This document shows positions 23,680 to 50,606 of a stretch of DNA of 64,000 nt, in pieces. The notes beneath the pieces were generated by a model, which ran no database searches, was not told the origin of the DNA, and saw only the letters and a list, made by a program, of their open reading frames with translations. A program made the position numbers and the translations under genes. Where the stretch lies: IMG/VR virus record IMGVR_UViG_3300033388_004609, positions 1 to 64,000 of that record. One strand, 5' to 3'. The DNA comes from a virus. Position 1 is the first letter of the stretch. Every line of letters starts with the position of its first letter.

Positions 23680-26600
23680 TTAAATTTTTAGTTGTTTTTT
23701 TAATTCTCTCATTTTTAACATTTTTGCAAATGGATCTGCTTTCTCCATGGCTTTATATTTAAACATATCCATTCTTGCAAAAAAACCTGGTACCTCCAAT
23801 GCTTTATGTGATTCCTCCGGATCGAAATGCATCATGTCTTCTTTAAGAAGCATCAACATTCCAAATGCGCTTACTCTGTCAAAATTACCGTCTTTATGCC
23901 AATATATAAATTCCTGTAATAATGGAATAGATCGTATTGTATGTAAATTCATTAACTCACTACTACTGCTAACTTTAGTCACCAAATGTATTAATGATAA
24001 TTCTCTCGCCCATTTATTTATTCCCTGTGTACCAGGAGATCCTTTTCCACGATTAAGTACTACTTTATCAACTACCTTATCAGCTACTACCTTTGGAGTA
24101 TCACAAAGCAAGTATGAAGAGAATGTATTATTCATATAAGTCCCCATACCCTTGCAATCATTCTCGTAATTACACTTAGCATTATAATATATTAGTAACC
24201 TGCGAACATTTTCATAATACATATTCGCTGTCAGTGGCCGACCAGTATATTCTGCAACAATTCTACCTGTCACTTTATTCATGACAAATGTTGAACCAAG
24301 TGAATCTGTTGTTGAGTCATCATGGTCATATGTATCGTTACCAGCTATATAAAGTCCATACGGCACTTCTCCATCCTCTCCTGTTACTGGATGCTCATAG
24401 ATCACTATACACCCTTCTATAAGCTTCTTATCGTTTAAAGGGAATGTTCTAATCGGTCTTGCCTCAGGATCTAGTTTCCATTCAATCTTTTCAGTCTCCG
24501 GGTTAATTACAAGTTTACCAACATACTCTGTGTCTTCGAATTTTTCAGGGTGAGTTCTTACATACGCAAGATGTTCTTTAAGATCATTAATAGGAAAGAT
24601 AGTACCACCAATACGCATACATGCTTCCTGTGGTGTCTTGGGTTCTTCTGCAATGTGTCTTATTATTGCTTCGGGATTCTTTGTTTCATTTCTTACTTTA
24701 TCCCTATCAGCCTCTATTAGTTTATCTGCAAGTTCTGTATCTGAATTACCATCCTTATCCATGGTCCCTTCAAGATTCTTTAATACAGAAGAAAAGAAAC
24801 CAGACTTCGATCCAGCAGTTGTAGTATCCCATATATTAGGAACCATATGAACATTATATCCACCACCTTCATAATAAAGTTGCTCTAACCCCATAAAGTC
24901 TTGATTTTCAGTTCCTCCAGTTTGTTTGGTTATAAAATTGTTTGAGATATATGTATTTGTGTAAGCTGTATGAAGATTATAAATATTCTGCATCCCTATA
25001 TATTCAACCTTTGTAACAGATTCGGTTCTAAAATTAGTCATTCCTTTTTTGCCAATAAAAAAATGACCTTTATCATTATCAGGATTCAATTCGAAAACAC
25101 CTTTATTAATTCTGCTTCTATCTATAGAATTAGATTCATGTATCCGTCTCAAGACTTCCACTTTTTTCTTAGACAAAAGTTTAATATTCTTTTCGAAATT
25201 CTTTACATCATTTATATTTGTAATATACAATCTATAAACATATTCTTTACCACCACTATATCCGCTAGTTCTCTTCTCTTTGATTATATTACCATGAATG
25301 CCAAACTTCGTCAACTGATAATAAACCTCCTTAAGTAAAGGTTTAATATTACTCGTCAATACTACTCGAACTGTTTTCTTTTGCTTAGTCCATGTCACAT
25401 GACCATCTGCATCAAAATAGCCTGCAAGTAAATCAGAAAGTGATTTTTTATTATATTCGTGAATATTCTTAGGGAGCCTTTTATCATCTTTTACTTGTCC
25501 GTATATACCAATATCTTTTAATACATGTGAAAAGTTCTTTATTCCTACCGAATCATGCACTCCTCCATTACTCATAAATTTTGATTTGTATATAGAGGTA
25601 TCATAATTTTTCTTAACATATTTTAATATTGAATCGTCTGCACATGACAATTGAGGAGTTGCTCCTTTTGTATAATTTCCATCACCAATTAATAATCCTA
25701 TTAATCGAGCATCTTTTATATTCTTTTTCCCAAATACAGGAACTTCATCAATCTTTAATAATTGATCTCCTGGTTTTATATTTTTTGTTAATGTAAACGA
25801 AACTCTTCTTCCTGCCTGAAATTTTCCATCCATATATTTATACCATTGAGGTCTTGTCCACATTAATGGATGATCTCCTGAACATTCTATATAATTTTCT
25901 CCTGAAGTTGTTATTCTATAACATGGCTTTTTTTCAGGAGGTTTAAACCATTTTATTTTTTCTTTATAGGACTTATAACCATCGTAACCTATAATTCCAT
26001 CCTCTTGTTGTAAATCTTCAATATTTATTAGTTTTCCATCTTTCGTCCATACTTTAGTTCCTGCACAAACACAGCCGAAGGATGCTTGCAAACCAAAAGT
26101 AAGTCTTCCTTGTTGCATACTTTTTAAGGAGATGTTCCATGCTTTTAATAAGTTAGGATTTTTTCCGCTCTCTTCATACAGTATTAATTTTCCACGCTTG
26201 CCACGTGCTTTGTTCCAATTGTTTTTTAGACTTACTCCTATTATCTCTGACTTAAATCCTTTCTCTATTTTTAATCCATTCCTCTGAATATAGTAAGAAG
26301 CTCTTCTATGCATTACACTATTATGGACCTGTCGTCTTTTTCCCCATGGAGTATGATTTTCTATATGAGTCATCATATCCCATGCCTTGGTTATTATACC
26401 ATCTTCAATAAGATAATCTTTATCATCCGCAAAACAATAACTTTTACTTCCTGGAATAAGATAATAATTACGATTACACATACCGCCACCTTTAAGACTA
26501 AATCCTCTCCCCCTGGTTTTGATTACCACTGCATGTTCACCACTCTCTTCTGCATCATTCAGATAATGAAAATATGTATAATCATTATCCCAAAAATGAG

Positions 26601-26973
26601 GAAATTGATCCTCCCTATCAGCTTGTGTCTGTTTGGTTAATTCATCAAATCCCCTTTTGTTATCATCTATTTTTTCTCTCTCTACAGCAATAGGTATTGG
26701 ACAATAATTTAGATAGAAATAAAAATAACCAGGAATCCAATCTCTTCCAATATCATATCCAAAGACTGATCTCCTGGCTTCTTCTTCCCAGAATTTATAG
26801 TACATACTATTGGGGTGAGAATTTACAGGGTAATTAGTGTATCTTCCAAACTCTTCAAAATGCAGAGCAGAAGCACGCCATTCATCGGTATTATAATGTT
26901 TAGTATTCTTATAATAACCTGATGTGATTATATCGCTTTTAGGTTGCACCGGTGATAAAATGTCACTGGTCAT
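23680..26973 (-). CDS. terL: terminase large subunit containing an intein
   Basis: KTRGRGFS Walker A, LILYEESG Walker B, YIAGNDTYD and GNFDRV nuclease motifs. Confidence 0.92.
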   Translation of the reverse strand: MTSDILSPVQPKSDIITSGYYKNTKHYNTDEWRASALHFEEFGRYTNYPVNSHPNSMYYKFWEEEARRSVFGYDIGRDWIPGYFYFYLNYCPIPIAVEREKIDDNKRGFDELTKQTQADREDQFPHFWDNDYTYFHYLNDAEESGEHAVVIKTRGRGFSLKGGGMCNRNYYLIPGSKSYCFADDKDYLIEDGIITKAWDMMTHIENHTPWGKRRQVHNSVMHRRASYYIQRNGLKIEKGFKSEIIGVSLKNNWNKARGKRGKLILYEESGKNPNLLKAWNISLKSMQQGRLTFGLQASFGCVCAGTKVWTKDGKLINIEDLQQEDGIIGYDGYKSYKEKIKWFKPPEKKPCYRITTSGENYIECSGDHPLMWTRPQWYKYMDGKFQAGRRVSFTLTKNIKPGDQLLKIDEVPVFGKKNIKDARLIGLLIGDGNYTKGATPQLSCADDSILKYVKKNYDTSIYKSKFMSNGGVHDSVGIKNFSHVLKDIGIYGQVKDDKRLPKNIHEYNKKSLSDLLAGYFDADGHVTWTKQKKTVRVVLTSNIKPLLKEVYYQLTKFGIHGNIIKEKRTSGYSGGKEYVYRLYITNINDVKNFEKNIKLLSKKKVEVLRRIHESNSIDRSRINKGVFELNPDNDKGHFFIGKKGMTNFRTESVTKVEYIGMQNIYNLHTAYTNTYISNNFITKQTGGTENQDFMGLEQLYYEGGGYNVHMVPNIWDTTTAGSKSGFFSSVLKNLEGTMDKDGNSDTELADKLIEADRDKVRNETKNPEAIIRHIAEEPKTPQEACMRIGGTIFPINDLKEHLAYVRTHPEKFEDTEYVGKLVINPETEKIEWKLDPEARPIRTFPLNDKKLIEGCIVIYEHPVTGEDGEVPYGLYIAGNDTYDHDDSTTDSLGSTFVMNKVTGRIVAEYTGRPLTANMYYENVRRLLIYYNAKCNYENDCKGMGTYMNNTFSSYLLCDTPKVVADKVVDKVVLNRGKGSPGTQGINKWARELSLIHLVTKVSSSSELMNLHTIRSIPLLQEFIYWHKDGNFDRVSAFGMLMLLKEDMMHFDPEESHKALEVPGFFARMDMFKYKAMEKADPFAKMLKMRELKKQLKI
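24922..26073 (-). mobile_element. intein with LAGLIDADG homing endonuclease (384 aa)
   Basis: Junctions FG/CVCAGT...NNFITKQ/TGG; block B CSGDHP; LIGLLIGDG and LAGYFDADG motifs. Confidence 0.9.
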
Positions 26974-42057: not shown

Positions 42058-42088
42058 CAAATATATAACAATATTCCAAATTAACAAA
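42058..42088 (-). promoter_or_regulatory. Bacteroidota promoter for left-arm transcription
   Basis: TTTG-N19-TATATTTG. Confidence 0.75.
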
Positions 42089-42110
42089 TTTACAAGGTGC
42101 TAGTTTGTCT
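42082..42110. promoter_or_regulatory. 29-bp palindromic site, copy 4 (between divergent promoters)
   Basis: TAACAAAT-TTACAAGGTGCTA-GTTTGTCT. Confidence 0.7.
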
Positions 42111-42121
42111 TTTATAAAATA

Positions 42122-42152
42122 ATTGCTTGTATCAAATATTTTATTATATTTG
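42122..42152 (+). promoter_or_regulatory. promoter of leader peptide/tRNA operon
   Basis: ATTG-N19-TATATTTG. Confidence 0.7.
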
Positions 42153-42159
42153 TACCGAT

Positions 42160-42240
42160 ATGAAAAAGAAACTACATACTCTCGTTTTATTACAGCCCCA
42201 TTTGCCACGTGGCCATAATAAGGAGAGGTATATGTTTTAA
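42160..42240 (+). CDS. attenuator leader peptide MKKKLHTLVLLQPHLPRGHNKERYMF (26 aa)
   Basis: ATG just after the promoter; 12 of codons 5-19 are Leu/His/Gln/Pro/Arg; overlaps the antiterminator arm. Confidence 0.75.
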   Translation: MKKKLHTLVLLQPHLPRGHNKERYMF

Positions 42241-42266
42241 ACAATATAAGATATTAATCAATTAAT

Positions 42267-42299
42267 GTGCCTCTGAATATTCAGGGGCATTTTTATTTT
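42267..42299 (+). terminator. attenuator terminator hairpin
   Basis: GTGCCTCTGA-ATAT-TCAGGGGCAT followed by TTTTATTTT, immediately before tRNA-Pro. Confidence 0.8.
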
Positions 42300-42300
42300 A

Positions 42301-42373
42301 CGGGAGTCTGGTGTAATCAGGTAGCATACCTGCCTTGGAAGCAGGAGGCGCAGTTCAAATCTGAGGTTCCCGA
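42301..42373 (+). tRNA. tRNA-Pro(UGG)
   Basis: Cloverleaf; anticodon arm CCTGC-CTTGGAA-GCAGG; C1-G72, A73. Confidence 0.85.
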
Positions 42374-42375
42374 CT

Positions 42376-42449
42376 GTGACTGATCCCGAAGTGGTCGAGG
42401 GGCCGGATTGTGATTCCGGTATCAGTGGGTTCGAGTCCCACCAGTCACC
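42376..42449 (+). tRNA. tRNA-His(GUG)
   Basis: GTGACTG/CAGTCAC acceptor; CCGGA-TTGTGAT-TCCGG; C73. Confidence 0.9.
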
Positions 42450-42453
42450 CATT

Positions 42454-42525
42454 GGCCTTGTGGTGTAATGAATAGCATGTAACGCTTCGAATGTTATGGT
42501 TCTGGTTTGAATCCCGCCAAGGCCT
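42454..42525 (+). tRNA. tRNA-Arg(UCG)
   Basis: GGCCTTG/CAAGGCC acceptor; TAACG-CTTCGAA-TGTTA; imperfect T-arm (TTTGAAT). Confidence 0.7.
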
Positions 42526-42532
42526 CTCTATT

Positions 42533-42606
42533 GTCCCTTTAGCCCAATTGGTAGAGGCATCAGGTTTAAGCCCTGTGTAGTCTGGGTTCGAATCCCAGAA
42601 GGGACA
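42533..42606 (+). tRNA. tRNA-Leu(UAA), short variable loop
   Basis: GTCCCTT/AAGGGAC acceptor; CAGG-TTTAAGC-CCTG; A73. Confidence 0.8.
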
Positions 42607-42612
42607 CACAAT

Positions 42613-42686
42613 GCTAAAGTGTGCTAACTGGCAAAGCAGCGATACTTAGAATATCGTGGATGTGAGTTCGAATCTCACCTTTAGCA
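42613..42686 (+). tRNA. tRNA-Leu(UAG), short variable loop
   Basis: GCTAAAG/CTTTAGC acceptor; CGATA-CTTAGAA-TATCG; A73. Confidence 0.85.
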
Positions 42687-42692
42687 CAAAAT

Positions 42693-42764
42693 TGTCCTTT
42701 AGTATAATGGTCAGTACACAAGGCTTTGATCCTTGAAATCCCGGTTCGAGTCCGGGAAGGACAT
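42693..42764 (+). tRNA. tRNA-Gln(UUG)
   Basis: TGTCCTT/AAGGACA acceptor (U1-A72); CAAGG-CTTTGAT-CCTTG. Confidence 0.9.
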
Positions 42765-42801
42765 CTATACCTATCTTAAATATAATATATAAACACTATT
42801 T

Positions 42802-42833: not shown

Positions 42834-42990
42834 ACCCACTATAAAAACACTCCCCACCCATAAAATTACATTAACGTCTCGGCCAAACAAACACCCACCC
42901 ACACAAATACCCCCACCCTTTACTGTAACCCCCGTAAACACCCCCACCCCCTTTACATTATACCCCCCAATACCCCCATACCTCATCCAA
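42834..42990. repeat. C-rich low-complexity tract (G-runs on minus strand)
   Basis: More than ten C3-C6 runs in ~150 bp. Confidence 0.85.
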
Positions 42991-43726: not shown

Positions 43727-43755
43727 TAACAAATTTACACGGCGCTAGTATGTCT
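43727..43755. promoter_or_regulatory. 29-bp palindromic site, copy 6
   Basis: TAACAAAT-TTACACGGCGCTA-GTATGTCT; three mismatches to copy 4. Confidence 0.7.
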
Positions 43756-44390
43756 TTTTTATTTTTCAATTTTTCATTAAAAAGGACTAAAGGAAAATAA
43801 GACAATTTTATTAAGTAATTAATAATCAACAATAAAACAAAATAAGCTACAAAATAACTACTTTACACCTATATATATAAGGCATAATTAAGGACAATTT
43901 ATCGTAGATAATCAACTATTTTTATTAGCTGATACCACTAAAAAGACTAATGGCAAAAGCTCGCAAACCCCTATGTTCACTGGTCTTTGCGCTAACTAAT
44001 ATATTGACTGCTGGCTTTTATTTTCTTATAGTATATATATTAGTATAAGTAGTAGTAGATAAGATTGATAACAATAATAATAGTGATTTTTCTATATTTT
44101 TATTGTTTGGTAAAGTAGAACATTTTATATTTTTTTACGAATATTTAAGAAAAAGTATAACTAATTCCGTTATTTGAGGGAGCAAAGATTTTAAGTCTAT
44201 CTTATAGTTATCAAACTAAATTATACAATTATGAAAACATTAATAATGATTACAAGGTACATTAACCGTCTTATAGACGATAATTGGAATACTGAACGTA
44301 AAAGAATATTAATTGAAAAACTATTAAAAAAACATCTGAACTCTTCCGAGAGTAGAACTTTTTATTATTAATCACTTAAACTAATCAATC

Positions 44391-45632: not shown

Positions 45633-45934
45633 GGGGCTGACAGGTTTTGATTTATTGTAGTAAGTAATTAATGCAAGCAGTGGTAAAACCCGGGAATCAC
45701 TTTAAACAACTCGGGGAATAAACAAAAGGCAATACCATAAGTACGCCTGTTGCAAATGAGCTTAAGTTAGCTGCATAGCAACCGGGAATGTTAAGATGCC
45801 TGGGAACAAAAAGAATTAACAGCTTTTTTGTTTTATTTTTTTCATAATTTTAGTTTAGGTGAATACTCATAAAGCTTGTAAACATTAGTTAAATACACAA
45901 TGAAAACAAAAGGGTTCGATTCCCTTCGGCTCCA
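45633..45934 (+). ncRNA. ssrA: tmRNA
   Basis: 5' GGGGCTG pairs with 3' CGGCTCC-A with G3:U Ala identity pair; T-arm GGGTTCGATTCCC; tag ORF 45728-45778 reads GNTISTPVANELKLAA*. Confidence 0.9.
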
Positions 45935-45976
45935 CTACATAAATTACCATTTAAATAATCACTTTATTAATTTTAT

Positions 45977-47539: not shown

Positions 47540-47926
47540 ATGAAAATATATTATGCAAAATCGAAACAAGTATCAAAACAACAAGCAGAAAAAGAACTTG
47601 AGTTTTTAACAAACACATTTAAAGAATCAACCATCTCTTATTATAAAGATGGACCTTATGATCCTAAAGTATTAGATAGCTCAGATATGCTTATAGTCAC
47701 TTCTACCGACTACAAATTTTTAGTGGGTAGAGGTATAGCAAATCAGGTAATAAGTGCTGAAAACGCCGGAAAACCTATTTATATACTCGATAAAGATAAT
47801 GAAGAAGGATTTTGTTTCAGACTTTATGATGGATATGATATTGTAGACCATAAAATATGGACAGATGGATACGTAAAAATTCATCCTGGAGAAATAATTA
47901 ACATCCATAAATTATCAGTAAAATGA
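47540..47926 (+). CDS. nucleoside 2-deoxyribosyltransferase-like fold protein
   Basis: KIYYA...LDSSDMLIV...GRG...(Q)V..A...GKPIY pattern. Confidence 0.5.
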   Translation: MKIYYAKSKQVSKQQAEKELEFLTNTFKESTISYYKDGPYDPKVLDSSDMLIVTSTDYKFLVGRGIANQVISAENAGKPIYILDKDNEEGFCFRLYDGYDIVDHKIWTDGYVKIHPGEIINIHKLSVK

Positions 47927-48375
47927 CAATAGAAAAAGATAAGTTAAAAGCATTTATTCATAACCTATGGATAAAGAGTCGATACTCATTTAATGAACAA
48001 ACTGCACAAAAAGAATTGGATACTTTAATTGAAGAATTACCTGTTATTCACAAAATAACTACTCTAGAAGATTTATTAAATTATATAACAAATTACTTCC
48101 AACAAGATATATCTAATATATGCTCTTATTCAATGAAAGGAGAATATGTTAGAGTAAAACAAATTTATTGTTATATGGCAAGGCAACTATTTACAAGGAC
48201 TTCTTTAGGTACAATAGGTAAAACAATACGTATTGACTATGACCATTCAACAGTATTACATGGTATAAGAACTATAGAAAATGAACTGAATAATGATAAA
48301 TTTTTACGAAAAGATATAAAATTATTATTTAATGGACTTAAAATAGTGAGAAATACCGAAAGTGAAAAAAAATAA
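47923..48375 (+). CDS. DnaA C-terminal (Bac_DnaA_C) HTH domain protein
   Basis: RVKQI..YMAR....SL..IG....DHSTVLHGIR.IE. Confidence 0.8.
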   Translation: MTIEKDKLKAFIHNLWIKSRYSFNEQTAQKELDTLIEELPVIHKITTLEDLLNYITNYFQQDISNICSYSMKGEYVRVKQIYCYMARQLFTRTSLGTIGKTIRIDYDHSTVLHGIRTIENELNNDKFLRKDIKLLFNGLKIVRNTESEKK

Positions 48376-48841
48376 ACAATGCTCTATTAAAGGTTGTACT
48401 AATATCACATTTTCGAAAGATAAATGTTTATATCATTATAGAATGGGTTTAAAGCCTCTTAGACGAACTCCATTAAAGCATGGAGATACTCGTATTGCTA
48501 AACGATCGAAGAAACGTCAATATGAAGAAGATATACTTTACAAGGAAGCCAAGAGAATACGCAAGAGAGAGCTTATCTTACTAAACAGATGGTTTTGCTT
48601 GTTTTGTGGTAAAAAGCTCCCTCAGTGTCCTACTTGGCACCATACCAGAGGTCGGGATGGAGAACTTTTAATTAAAAAAGAATTTCTTTATCCTGCTCAT
48701 TTTAAATGTCATGTTACTCAATACCATCAATTGCCAATTAGTAAAATACCATGGTGGAATAATTACGTTAAACGTATAAAAGTATGGGATCCGGAATTGT
48801 ATAAAAAGGAACTAATTAAAATAGACAAAGCAAATGACTAA
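48362..48841 (+). CDS. HNH-like nuclease
   Basis: CLFC...WHH..GR...CH...H. Confidence 0.6.
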   Translation: MKKNKQCSIKGCTNITFSKDKCLYHYRMGLKPLRRTPLKHGDTRIAKRSKKRQYEEDILYKEAKRIRKRELILLNRWFCLFCGKKLPQCPTWHHTRGRDGELLIKKEFLYPAHFKCHVTQYHQLPISKIPWWNNYVKRIKVWDPELYKKELIKIDKAND

Positions 48842-50606
48842 AAAACAAAATATAACATCTGACTTCGATATTGATAAAGTACCACCTCAAAATATAGAAA
48901 TGGAAATGAACGTTCTTGGATTAATGATAATGTATAAAGATGTAGCACTAAAATTATGTATGAGAATGAAGCCAGTATATTTCTACATAGATACACATCA
49001 GAAAATATTCCAAGCAATATTGGATCTCATTAATAAAGGTAGAGGAGGAGTTGATCTCTTAACAGTACAAGAACAACTTAAAAAAAATAATAATCTTGAT
49101 ATAATAGGTGGCCCGCATTATTTAACAAGTTTAACCAGCAATGTTACAGGATCAGGAAATGCAGATATTTATTCGATGGTTGTAACAGAAGAATATTGGA
49201 AAAGAGAATTAATAAGAATAGGGAGTGAAATGAATAATAAAGGATTTAATAATTCTTTAGATCCTCTCGATATTGCTGAAGATGCAGAAAAAGAATTGAG
49301 GGAAATATTTAATGTTACCGATACTCACAAAAATTCATTTCACGAAGCTCTCGAATCAACAATTACTGATATTCGAAGAAAAGCACAAGGAGAAACATCA
49401 GCATATCTTAAAACCGGTGATAAAGCTCTTGATAAAGAAGTATCGTTAAGAAGAGGTTTTGTAGTTGTTTTAGCTGGCGCAGAAGGCTCGGGGAAAACAA
49501 AATATGTTATCCATCTTACAAGGGGAATGTTAGATATTAAAGAAAATAATTTGTGCGTGTTATGGTTTACTATGGAAGATGACAGAAAACAAATAATAAG
49601 AAGTTTTATTTCAATGGATACTAAACTAACCACTAAAGAACTACAAAGCATCAATTATACACTTACACAAGGTGACATAACAAAAATAGATGATGTCAGT
49701 CATGGCTTTTTTGAATATGATATAGAATTCATTGATCGGCAAACAAATATTCATCAAATAATATCACAATCAAAAAGATTTGTTGATGAGCGAATAAACA
49801 AAGCACCATTAATCATAATAGACAATTTGGGATTAATAGAGGTTGAATCAGGTTTTACACCTGTCGAAAGAGATGATTATCTTACCGGTAAAATAAAGGA
49901 CTTATCAGCCGAGTTAGATGCTTGTATTATACTTGTACATCATTTTAATAAAGAAGCTTCAAAAAAAGCTAACATACGTGAAGGATATCGACCAAGAAAA
50001 GATCATATAAAAGGATCAACAAGAATACTCGATTATGTTCAACAAGCATTACTTGTAAATTTACCAAGAAAATATAAAGATCTTGTTTACGAAGAGAAAG
50101 ACAAACAAATAATAATGCCTGTACTTACTAAAATGGATGAAGAAGCATTTTTCGAGCATTTCTGGCCACTTAATCCTAAAGGTGATAGCTTTACTAAATC
50201 ATTAGCTGATGTACCTAAAGCTACTTGGAATGAACTTTTAACAACAGTCAGACATAAGAAAACAATTAAAGGAAAGCCTATCACTGCAGGATTTATACTT
50301 AAAAAATATATTGAATATATAAATTTTATTAATGATACAAATGCTGATCGGGAAAAGAAATTCCACAGTCAAAAGATAAGTATTTATCAATTTCTAAAGA
50401 AAGGTAAATACAATGAAAGTTTCGCACCCGAAAAATCATCTAAAAGCTTTTATTTATATGGTGGTAACCCAAAGTTAAAAGATAAAATAGAAGAATTATT
50501 TATTGTTGAAGCTGTTAAAAATAGAGATGGTGGTACTACTGATGACCAAGTGATATTTAGATATTTTGGAGATCTTAATTATAACATATTCACAGAGATC
50601 CCATGA
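48834..50606 (+). CDS. dnaB: replicative DnaB-like helicase
   Basis: PPQNIEME N-domain, GAEGSGKT, IIIDNL, KNRDG motifs. Confidence 0.88.
   Translation: MTKKQNITSDFDIDKVPPQNIEMEMNVLGLMIMYKDVALKLCMRMKPVYFYIDTHQKIFQAILDLINKGRGGVDLLTVQEQLKKNNNLDIIGGPHYLTSLTSNVTGSGNADIYSMVVTEEYWKRELIRIGSEMNNKGFNNSLDPLDIAEDAEKELREIFNVTDTHKNSFHEALESTITDIRRKAQGETSAYLKTGDKALDKEVSLRRGFVVVLAGAEGSGKTKYVIHLTRGMLDIKENNLCVLWFTMEDDRKQIIRSFISMDTKLTTKELQSINYTLTQGDITKIDDVSHGFFEYDIEFIDRQTNIHQIISQSKRFVDERINKAPLIIIDNLGLIEVESGFTPVERDDYLTGKIKDLSAELDACIILVHHFNKEASKKANIREGYRPRKDHIKGSTRILDYVQQALLVNLPRKYKDLVYEEKDKQIIMPVLTKMDEEAFFEHFWPLNPKGDSFTKSLADVPKATWNELLTTVRHKKTIKGKPITAGFILKKYIEYINFINDTNADREKKFHSQKISIYQFLKKGKYNESFAPEKSSKSFYLYGGNPKLKDKIEELFIVEAVKNRDGGTTDDQVIFRYFGDLNYNIFTEIP

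Follow-up and report, generated by a model that had tools for sequence, protein, structure and literature searches.

How does a phage control transfer RNA (tRNA) genes that sit directly behind an intrinsic transcription terminator? The question is raised by the window studied here, the first 64 kb of the 86,348-nt IMG/VR virus record IMGVR_UViG_3300033388_004609, in which a short open reading frame (ORF) and a terminator precede a block of six tRNA genes. From the arrangement of these elements, we put at about 0.6 the probability that a ribosome-mediated (leader-peptide) transcription attenuator gates this operon, the only tRNA operon of the phage. The phage would then probably make its six tRNAs only when ribosomes read the codons of the leader slowly. 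We assign the genome to an uncultured crAss-like phage (Crassvirales) based on PHROG profile matches (1e-98 to 1e-110) to a crAss-type major head protein, a portal, and a large terminase. Its major capsid protein (MCP) is 36-38% identical to those of phi14:2, DAC15, crAss001-like phages, and other Crassvirales.

A tRNA array that depends on read-through

An earlier note on this DNA had described a Bacteroidota promoter, a 26-amino-acid ORF, three mutually exclusive helices, and a tRNA array. The elements that we located or predicted are as follows.

42082-42110, + strand: palindromic 8-13-8 operator-like motif (TAACAAAy-N13-GTTTGTyw), directly upstream of the promoter
42123-42152, + strand: candidate Bacteroidota-type promoter, with TTG candidates at 42123-42129 and a -7 box, TAtaTTTG, at 42145-42152
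42160-42240, + strand: leader ORF of 26 codons plus stop with an ATG start, from the sequence and a start-context score
42168-42238 (core 42176-42231), + strand: predicted helix 1:2, the anti-antiterminator and possible pause hairpin, -14.4 to -16.7 kcal/mol on folding
42224-42233 with 42265-42274, + strand: predicted helix 2:3, the antiterminator, 10 bp including 2 G-U pairs, -11.4 kcal/mol as a hairpin
42267-42290 with a T-run to 42300, + strand: predicted intrinsic terminator (helix 3:4), 10-bp stem and 4-nt loop, -15.3 kcal/mol
42301-42374, + strand: tRNA-Pro (UGG)
42376-42450, + strand: tRNA-His (GUG)
42454-42526, + strand: tRNA-Arg (UCG)
42533-42607, + strand: tRNA-Leu (UAA), 75 nt, no long variable arm
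42613-42687, + strand: tRNA-Leu (UAG), 75 nt, no long variable arm
42693-42765, + strand: tRNA-Gln (UUG)

Both ARAGORN and Rfam found all six tRNAs (Pro, His, Arg, Leu, Leu, and Gln, at 42301-42765), in agreement with the array of the earlier note, and they are the sole tRNAs of the 86-kb genome. They supply one decoder per CNN box plus one for UUR. The spacers between them are 1-6 nt long and the terminator abuts tRNA-Pro, which leaves no room for a promoter either between the terminator and the tRNAs or after it. All six tRNAs therefore require read-through. A promoter downstream of the hairpin, which the earlier note had named as a finding that would speak against its proposal, does not fit anywhere in this arrangement.

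Of the six tRNAs, the five that decode CNN boxes have G36 (anticodons NNG) followed by A37 in place of G37, and tRNA-Leu(UAA), with A36, is the sole tRNA of the array with G37. None of the six genes encodes CCA, and both tRNA-Leu genes have an unusual form, since a bacterial tRNA-Leu is expected to have a long variable arm.

A leader rich in the codons of the array

The ORF upstream of the terminator yields the 26-residue peptide reported earlier. As had been claimed, 12 of its codons 5-19 specify Leu, His, Gln, Pro, or Arg, and all six boxes (CUN, UUR, CAY, CAR, CCN, and CGN) are represented. With CNN plus TTR as the target set and a 15-codon window, the genome has 409 small ATG ORFs, of which only the leader and one other reach 12 of 15 target codons (p about 0.005). 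The enrichment follows the reading frame: C occupies positions 1, 2, and 3 of codons 5-19 nine, three, and three times, respectively (hypergeometric p = 0.010), a bias toward the first position that general C-richness or RNA pairing would not produce. In a position-weight model built from 65 gene starts of the phage, the context of the leader ATG ranks at the 32nd percentile among real genes and within the top 4% when set against random ATGs. It thus resembles a typical gene start of this phage and is predicted to be usable, and we infer that the leader is translated from it.

Folding of the leader RNA

The leader is predicted to fold at about -33.6 kcal/mol (-33.5 over 42157-42300; z = -3.3 versus dinucleotide shuffles), and its fold consists of two hairpins, the one at 42168-42238 inside the ORF and the terminator. 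The terminator stem is followed by TTTTTATTTTA, and the next base is the first base of tRNA-Pro. Helix 1:2 has its 5' arm (42176-42197) within the sensing codons and its 3' arm at 42211-42231, and the downstream strand of helix 2:3 overlaps the 5' arm of the terminator. Between that terminator arm and the upstream 96 nt, the best duplex has an energy of -14.1 kcal/mol, a value matched by 1.65% of 2,000 dinucleotide shuffles (p = 0.0165) and by 1.1% of genomic windows. This antiterminator duplex falls in the 3' arm of helix 1:2, as an attenuator model needs. The predicted helices 1:2, 2:3, and 3:4 agree in position and in mutual exclusion with those that had been proposed, and their energies are comparable to those of the textbook attenuator arrangement.

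Folding with simulated ribosomes, which the earlier note had suggested as a check, bore out the proposal in part. When a 30-nt footprint was placed at each codon and the equilibrium ensemble was computed, the antiterminator dominated with the ribosome at codons 5-7 and the terminator was favored elsewhere. Because the terminator is favored at most stall positions, the model needs co-transcriptional kinetics, and we infer a kinetic competition between the helices. Classical attenuators are likewise kinetic, and thermodynamics alone would seem to decide neither for nor against an attenuator here.

No Rfam family matches the region 42100-42300, even at E <= 1, and this includes the model that recognizes the specifier loop and T-box motif of a T-box riboswitch. 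The leader ORF, the matched codons, the terminator that lacks a downstream promoter, and the mutually exclusive helices are, in silico, the components of a leader-peptide attenuator.

Proposed mechanism

In the mechanism that we propose, transcription, probably by host RNA polymerase, would start from the promoter near 42145-42152, and a ribosome would translate the 26-codon leader. A ribosome that runs to the stop codon would cover segment 2 (42211-42233), so that the terminator at 42267-42290 forms; if no ribosome is loaded, helix 1:2 would form, followed again by the terminator. With the terminator formed, transcription would end one base before tRNA-Pro. A ribosome that is slow to pass segment 1 (about codons 5-16), with its codons for Leu, His, Gln, Pro, and Arg, would leave segment 2 free to pair with the 5' arm of the terminator, and the polymerase would enter the six tRNA genes. 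Because the tRNA products decode the codons of the leader, the circuit would be a negative-feedback loop, in which tRNA synthesis is supplied on demand and the slow reading of these codons is the likely physiological signal.

The promoter of this scheme was read much as the earlier note had read it. In phi14:2, the middle as well as the late genes are transcribed by host RNA polymerase, and a middle-promoter motif occurs upstream of the tRNA genes in 12 of the 14 crAss-like genomes examined. An intrinsic terminator is therefore meaningful and can be expected to be read here. Crass-like phages also have a virion RNA polymerase of their own, which transcribes early genes; the early transcripts of phi14:2 share no common promoter motif, and tRNA genes tend to have host-type middle promoters.

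Initiation may be regulated separately. The 29-bp palindrome TAACAAAC-N13-GTTTGTTA occurs in six copies at 37.2-43.8 kb (37184, 38732, 41369, 42082, 42802, and 43727), around the point where the coding strand switches, and probably serves as an operator for a dimeric regulator. One copy lies just upstream of the promoter, so that a protein probably controls initiation at the leader promoter as well. The copies at 42082 and 43727 belong to a 35-nt direct repeat, 89% identical, of which the second copy spans 43727-43761. A sigma-70-like TTTACA-N17-TATAAA inside the 42082-42110 element is a possible alternative promoter.

Recurrence in a relative

A helicase-alignment scan of a genome collection recovered a 99,404-nt contig (G011:C200) in a Spirochaetaceae metagenome-assembled genome bin, with identities to the phage of 78% for MCP, 72% for the large terminase, 57% for the portal, and 45% for the helicase. 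Its tRNA operon occupies the corresponding position, with the structural block on one side and the replication block on the other, and is oriented with the replication genes. The order is a promoter with TTATTATATTTGT, a 13-mer that is also part of the candidate promoter in the window, then tRNA-Met, about 200 nt, tRNA-Pro(UGG), tRNA-His(GUG), tRNA-Gln(UUG), an HNH gene, and tRNA-Leu(UAA). The tRNAs of the two phages are 58-70% identical.

The spacer between tRNA-Met and tRNA-Pro of this relative holds a 21-codon ORF with an A-rich stretch upstream. Codons 5-15 (LLQHLQLPLLP: CTA TTA CAA CAC TTA CAA CTT CCT TTA CTC CCA) are a run of 11 target codons, which is unique among 79,930 six-frame windows (40 kb of the contig) and does not occur among 172,626 windows of the studied phage genome; the next-longest run among the 302 small ORFs of the contig is 6. 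C falls on codon positions 1, 2, and 3 eight, two, and two times (p = 0.0036), and the anticodons encoded behind the terminator (UAA, UUG, GUG, and UGG) have exact Watson-Crick partners in 7 of the 11 codons. The ORF is embedded in a long predicted hairpin (leader fold z = -3.95). Next comes a terminator of 10-13 bp with a U7 run, and its end lies 3 nt short of tRNA-Pro. In the 3' arm of the ORF hairpin, a purine-rich stretch that includes the stop codon is predicted to pair with the 5' arm of the terminator (-13.2 kcal/mol, p = 0.02), and simulated stalls yield the antiterminator at codon 9 and, in part, at codon 8. The element lies inside the tRNA operon, flanked by tRNA-Met and tRNA-Pro, and has no promoter of its own.

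No alignment is possible between the leader sequences of the two phages, which nevertheless share the same layout; therefore, it is the design that is conserved rather than the sequence. The geometry put forward in the earlier note, that of a leader ORF, three helices, and a terminator ahead of the array, thus holds in silico and recurs in one relative. The two phages also differ in a matching way with respect to Arg: the relative has neither a tRNA-Arg nor an Arg codon in its leader, and the studied phage has both. This contrast is weak evidence, because the studied leader contains only one CGN codon.

In the relative, the tRNA-Leu(UAA) gene (L037 818-892, - strand) is also 75 nt long, without a long variable arm. 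An HNH endonuclease-like ORF (L037 900-1360, - strand) is inserted between it and tRNA-Gln, and this insertion may account for the altered order of the tRNAs and for the lack of Arg and Leu(UAG) genes.

More distant relatives and controls

The earlier note had proposed to look for conservation in related phages. Among the others that we compared, three more distant relatives have a lone tRNA-Gln but no leader, and the arrangement is missing from four gut crAss-like phages. The former are among crAss-like viral contigs recovered by helicase alignment (41-46% identity), three of which carry a single tRNA-Gln. In two of them (L027 1380-1500 and L028 1440-1500; helicase 46%), tRNA-Gln(UUG) lies behind a 13-bp hairpin with a 15-20-nt loop and a T-run, directly so in L028 and after about 65 nt in L027. 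Immediately upstream of the hairpin is an ordinary membrane-protein gene of about 95 amino acids, and no codon-matched leader (a Gln-rich mini-ORF) precedes the lone tRNA-Gln in these more distant relatives. The 3' arm of the L027/L028 hairpin resembles the 35-nt repeat of the window (AAATTTACA..GGCG). We considered this hairpin as a promoter on account of the resemblance and rejected it, as the implied start site falls inside the tRNA.

In DAC15, cr85_1, a Kolpuevirus, and a crAss001-like phage, a quick search turned up no tRNA block preceded by both a codon-matched ORF and a U-run terminator. Small ORFs in the tRNA gaps of these four gut phages match the downstream isotypes at background level, and none has a U-run terminator next to the tRNA behind it. 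The arrangement is therefore not general to the tRNA regions of Crassvirales, and the two positive cases are not a bias of the method; by the same token, our search yielded no cultured model phage that carries the element. In PhiCrAssBcn24, a crAss001-like phage, a 27-codon ORF (L132 3535-3618, + strand) in the 170-nt gap before a tRNA-Phe/tRNA-Leu block has five Phe and three Leu codons (8 of 26) and no U-run terminator, a weak match that is not significant after multiple testing. phi14:2 has no tRNA.

Closer relatives of the array were sought in several collections. One DNA run from a cold seep includes a relative of the array with about 94% identity, and one 151-nt contig spans the terminator and tRNA-Pro with five differences; no contig of that run covers the leader ORF, and no RNA sequencing runs with the array were listed. 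Helicases with 79-85% identity exist, for example, on an 8.3-kb Logan contig, and two homologues of the neighboring 144-amino-acid protein were found, at 49-53% identity. Metagenome scans by protein alignment and with a tRNA-Leu 22-mer gave no match, nor did viral-contig scans with two flanking proteins, the helicase, and 21- and 24-mers of tRNA-Gln and tRNA-Leu. The MCP relatives in IMG/VR (78-96% identity) are fragments that end before the array and have no tRNA. Among 80 loci from an HNH-anchored scan, no tRNA array was found in the best 24, and the full records of five of the six best contained no tRNA. No GenBank phage is closer than 38% MCP identity, and DNA matches there were to unrelated tRNA-Leu genes only.

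Weighing the explanations

Several observations weigh against an attenuator. A hairpin next to a tRNA gene occurs in the crAss-like group without a leader-peptide attenuator, judging from the contigs with a lone tRNA-Gln. Use of the -7 box as the promoter gives a 5' untranslated region of 2-3 nt and an mRNA that is nearly leaderless. At equilibrium, the terminator wins for most simulated stalls, the exceptions being codons 5-7 in the phage and codon 9 in the relative. The match between leader and array is imperfect: in the phage, CGU as well as CUC and CCC need wobble or superwobble by U34 tRNAs, and the array has no reader for an AGG codon; the leader of the relative has six Leu codons, three of them CUN, yet its array has tRNA-Leu(UAA) only and no tRNA-Leu(UAG). 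Our p-values are all post hoc and each is moderate singly, and a single comparable relative does not permit a test of base-pair covariation.

Part of this would be explained by a constitutively leaky terminator, or by a hairpin that stabilizes the 3' end left after RNase P cuts at tRNA-Pro, with the ORF incidental or untranslated and the terminator setting a fixed low tRNA level or insulating the array. The tRNA-Gln genes of L028 and L027, which follow the hairpin and T-run of an ordinary gene with no leader ORF, provide a precedent, and the equilibrium preference for the terminator at most ribosome positions points the same way. We nevertheless regard this explanation as unlikely, since it accounts neither for the frame-specific enrichment of array codons in two leaders that cannot be aligned nor for the complementarity, in both phages, between the 5' arm of the terminator and the 3' arm of the ORF hairpin.

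Read-through might instead depend on a protein or a polymerase: a phage antiterminator, an RNA-binding protein with the long hairpin as its target, or a phage RNA polymerase insensitive to the terminator. This, too, leaves the codon composition of the two leaders unexplained. Control would then be temporal instead of codon sensing, and the ORF would be a bystander or encode a small protein. The six-site palindromic operator just upstream of the promoter and the virion RNA polymerase of crAss-like phages are consistent with such control, but that polymerase serves early genes, whose transcripts in phi14:2 lack a common motif, whereas host-type middle promoters tend to be found ahead of tRNA genes, and our analysis identified no candidate antiterminator; we therefore consider it quite improbable. 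Least probable, in our estimation, is an independent small gene, either a small RNA (sRNA) of about 140 nt or a functional 26-amino-acid peptide, with the tRNAs arising from residual read-through. A promoter, two hairpins, and a terminator are the usual anatomy of an sRNA gene, and the leader folds significantly better than shuffles. However, no Rfam family matches, the element of the relative lies within a tRNA operon without its own promoter, and the two ORFs are alike in composition and not in sequence, unlike what would be expected of a functional peptide or a base-pairing sRNA. None of these alternatives accounts for the way in which codon bias follows the reading frame in two unrelated leaders, and the leader-peptide attenuator remains our preferred reading.

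Comparison with known systems

Leader-peptide attenuators that sense several amino acids are known from enterobacteria, for example, the thr leader (Thr/Ile) and the ilvGMEDA leader (Leu/Val/Ile), alongside trpL, hisL, leuL, and pheL. The phage element would share with them a short leader rich in regulatory codons, helices 1:2, 2:3, and 3:4, an intrinsic terminator, a stop codon placed so that a finishing ribosome masks segment 2, and the sensing of several amino acids. In contrast to these systems, it would control tRNA genes instead of biosynthetic enzymes, so that the product feeds back on decoding of the leader; its leader samples five amino acids (six codon boxes) with no long homopolymeric runs; and it is borne by a phage of a presumed Bacteroidota host, on an mRNA that is possibly nearly leaderless. 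The attenuator of Escherichia coli pheST (phenylalanyl-tRNA synthetase), with the leader pheM, similarly applies leader-peptide attenuation to a translation component that supplies charged tRNA. Unlike the phage element, it is cellular, controls a synthetase, and senses a single amino acid.

With respect to the regulated genes, the nearest case that we found is the cryptic trn tRNA operon of Anabaena sp. PCC 7120, which is induced under translational stress (PMC8421152) and has the repressor TrcR (PMC10272220). As we propose for the phage, an accessory tRNA array that is normally off comes on when translation is impaired. However, the trn operon is controlled at initiation by TrcR, a ribbon-helix-helix repressor, and resides on a bacterial plasmid, not in a phage; the paper on the operon mentions no leader, attenuator, or terminator. 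Full-text literature searches found no published attenuation of tRNA genes in phages or bacteria, which agrees with the view in the earlier note that attenuation of a phage tRNA array had not been described.

Leader-peptide attenuation is thus known for amino-acid biosynthesis and synthetase genes, and we found no published case for tRNA genes. If our reading is correct, the phage uses a disposable test gene to gauge the decoding speed of a defined class of codons and replenishes exactly the tRNAs concerned. This would explain how phage tRNA arrays come under regulation instead of being constitutive. The leader would also serve as a small natural probe of tRNA supply, and phage tRNAs would be connected testably with host defenses that target tRNA. 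The case comes from sediment or cold-seep Crassvirales, and the two-genome comparison suggests that the leader sequence diverged past alignment while the codon and helix logic was kept.

The earlier note went further and read the element as a counter-defense sensor, in which the tRNAs are made only when their host counterparts are cleaved, uncharged, or unmodified. In a fuller form of this reading, which also takes in the A37 of the five CNN-box tRNAs, cleavage would be by an anticodon nuclease, the missing modification could be the TrmD-dependent m1G37, and the phage would replace an attacked class of tRNA on demand, alongside its own transfer-messenger RNA (tmRNA). We consider this doubtful: it is compatible with the evidence, but nothing in our analysis speaks for it specifically, and plain supply-and-demand autoregulation fits equally well.

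Genome context

The tRNA locus sits in the divergent intergenic region at a strand switch. The minus strand is the coding strand as far as about 42.07 kb and the plus strand from 43.2 kb onward, with a turn of the GC skew at this point. The plus-strand block encodes a DnaA-HTH protein (47923-48375) and a DnaB helicase (48834-50606). C-rich degenerate repeats (ACCCCCACCC-like, with spacings of 16, 31, and 32 nt) at 42881-42981 on the + strand lie in the gap that separates the tRNA array from the first plus-strand gene. They coincide with the GC-skew minimum, have the DnaA-HTH and DnaB genes nearby, and may be a replication origin. The tmRNA gene (45633-45937, + strand) lies on the strand of the tRNA array, 3 kb downstream; it was detected with Rfam RF00023 at 62.4 bits, against a gathering score of 47, and was missed by ARAGORN.

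The large terminase ORF (23680-26973, - strand) is 1,097 amino acids long, and only 286 of its residues align with its counterpart in the relative. Because the terminase profile is confined to residues 685-1056 and a primase-like match covers residues 344-528, the ORF suggests an N-terminal fusion or insertion.

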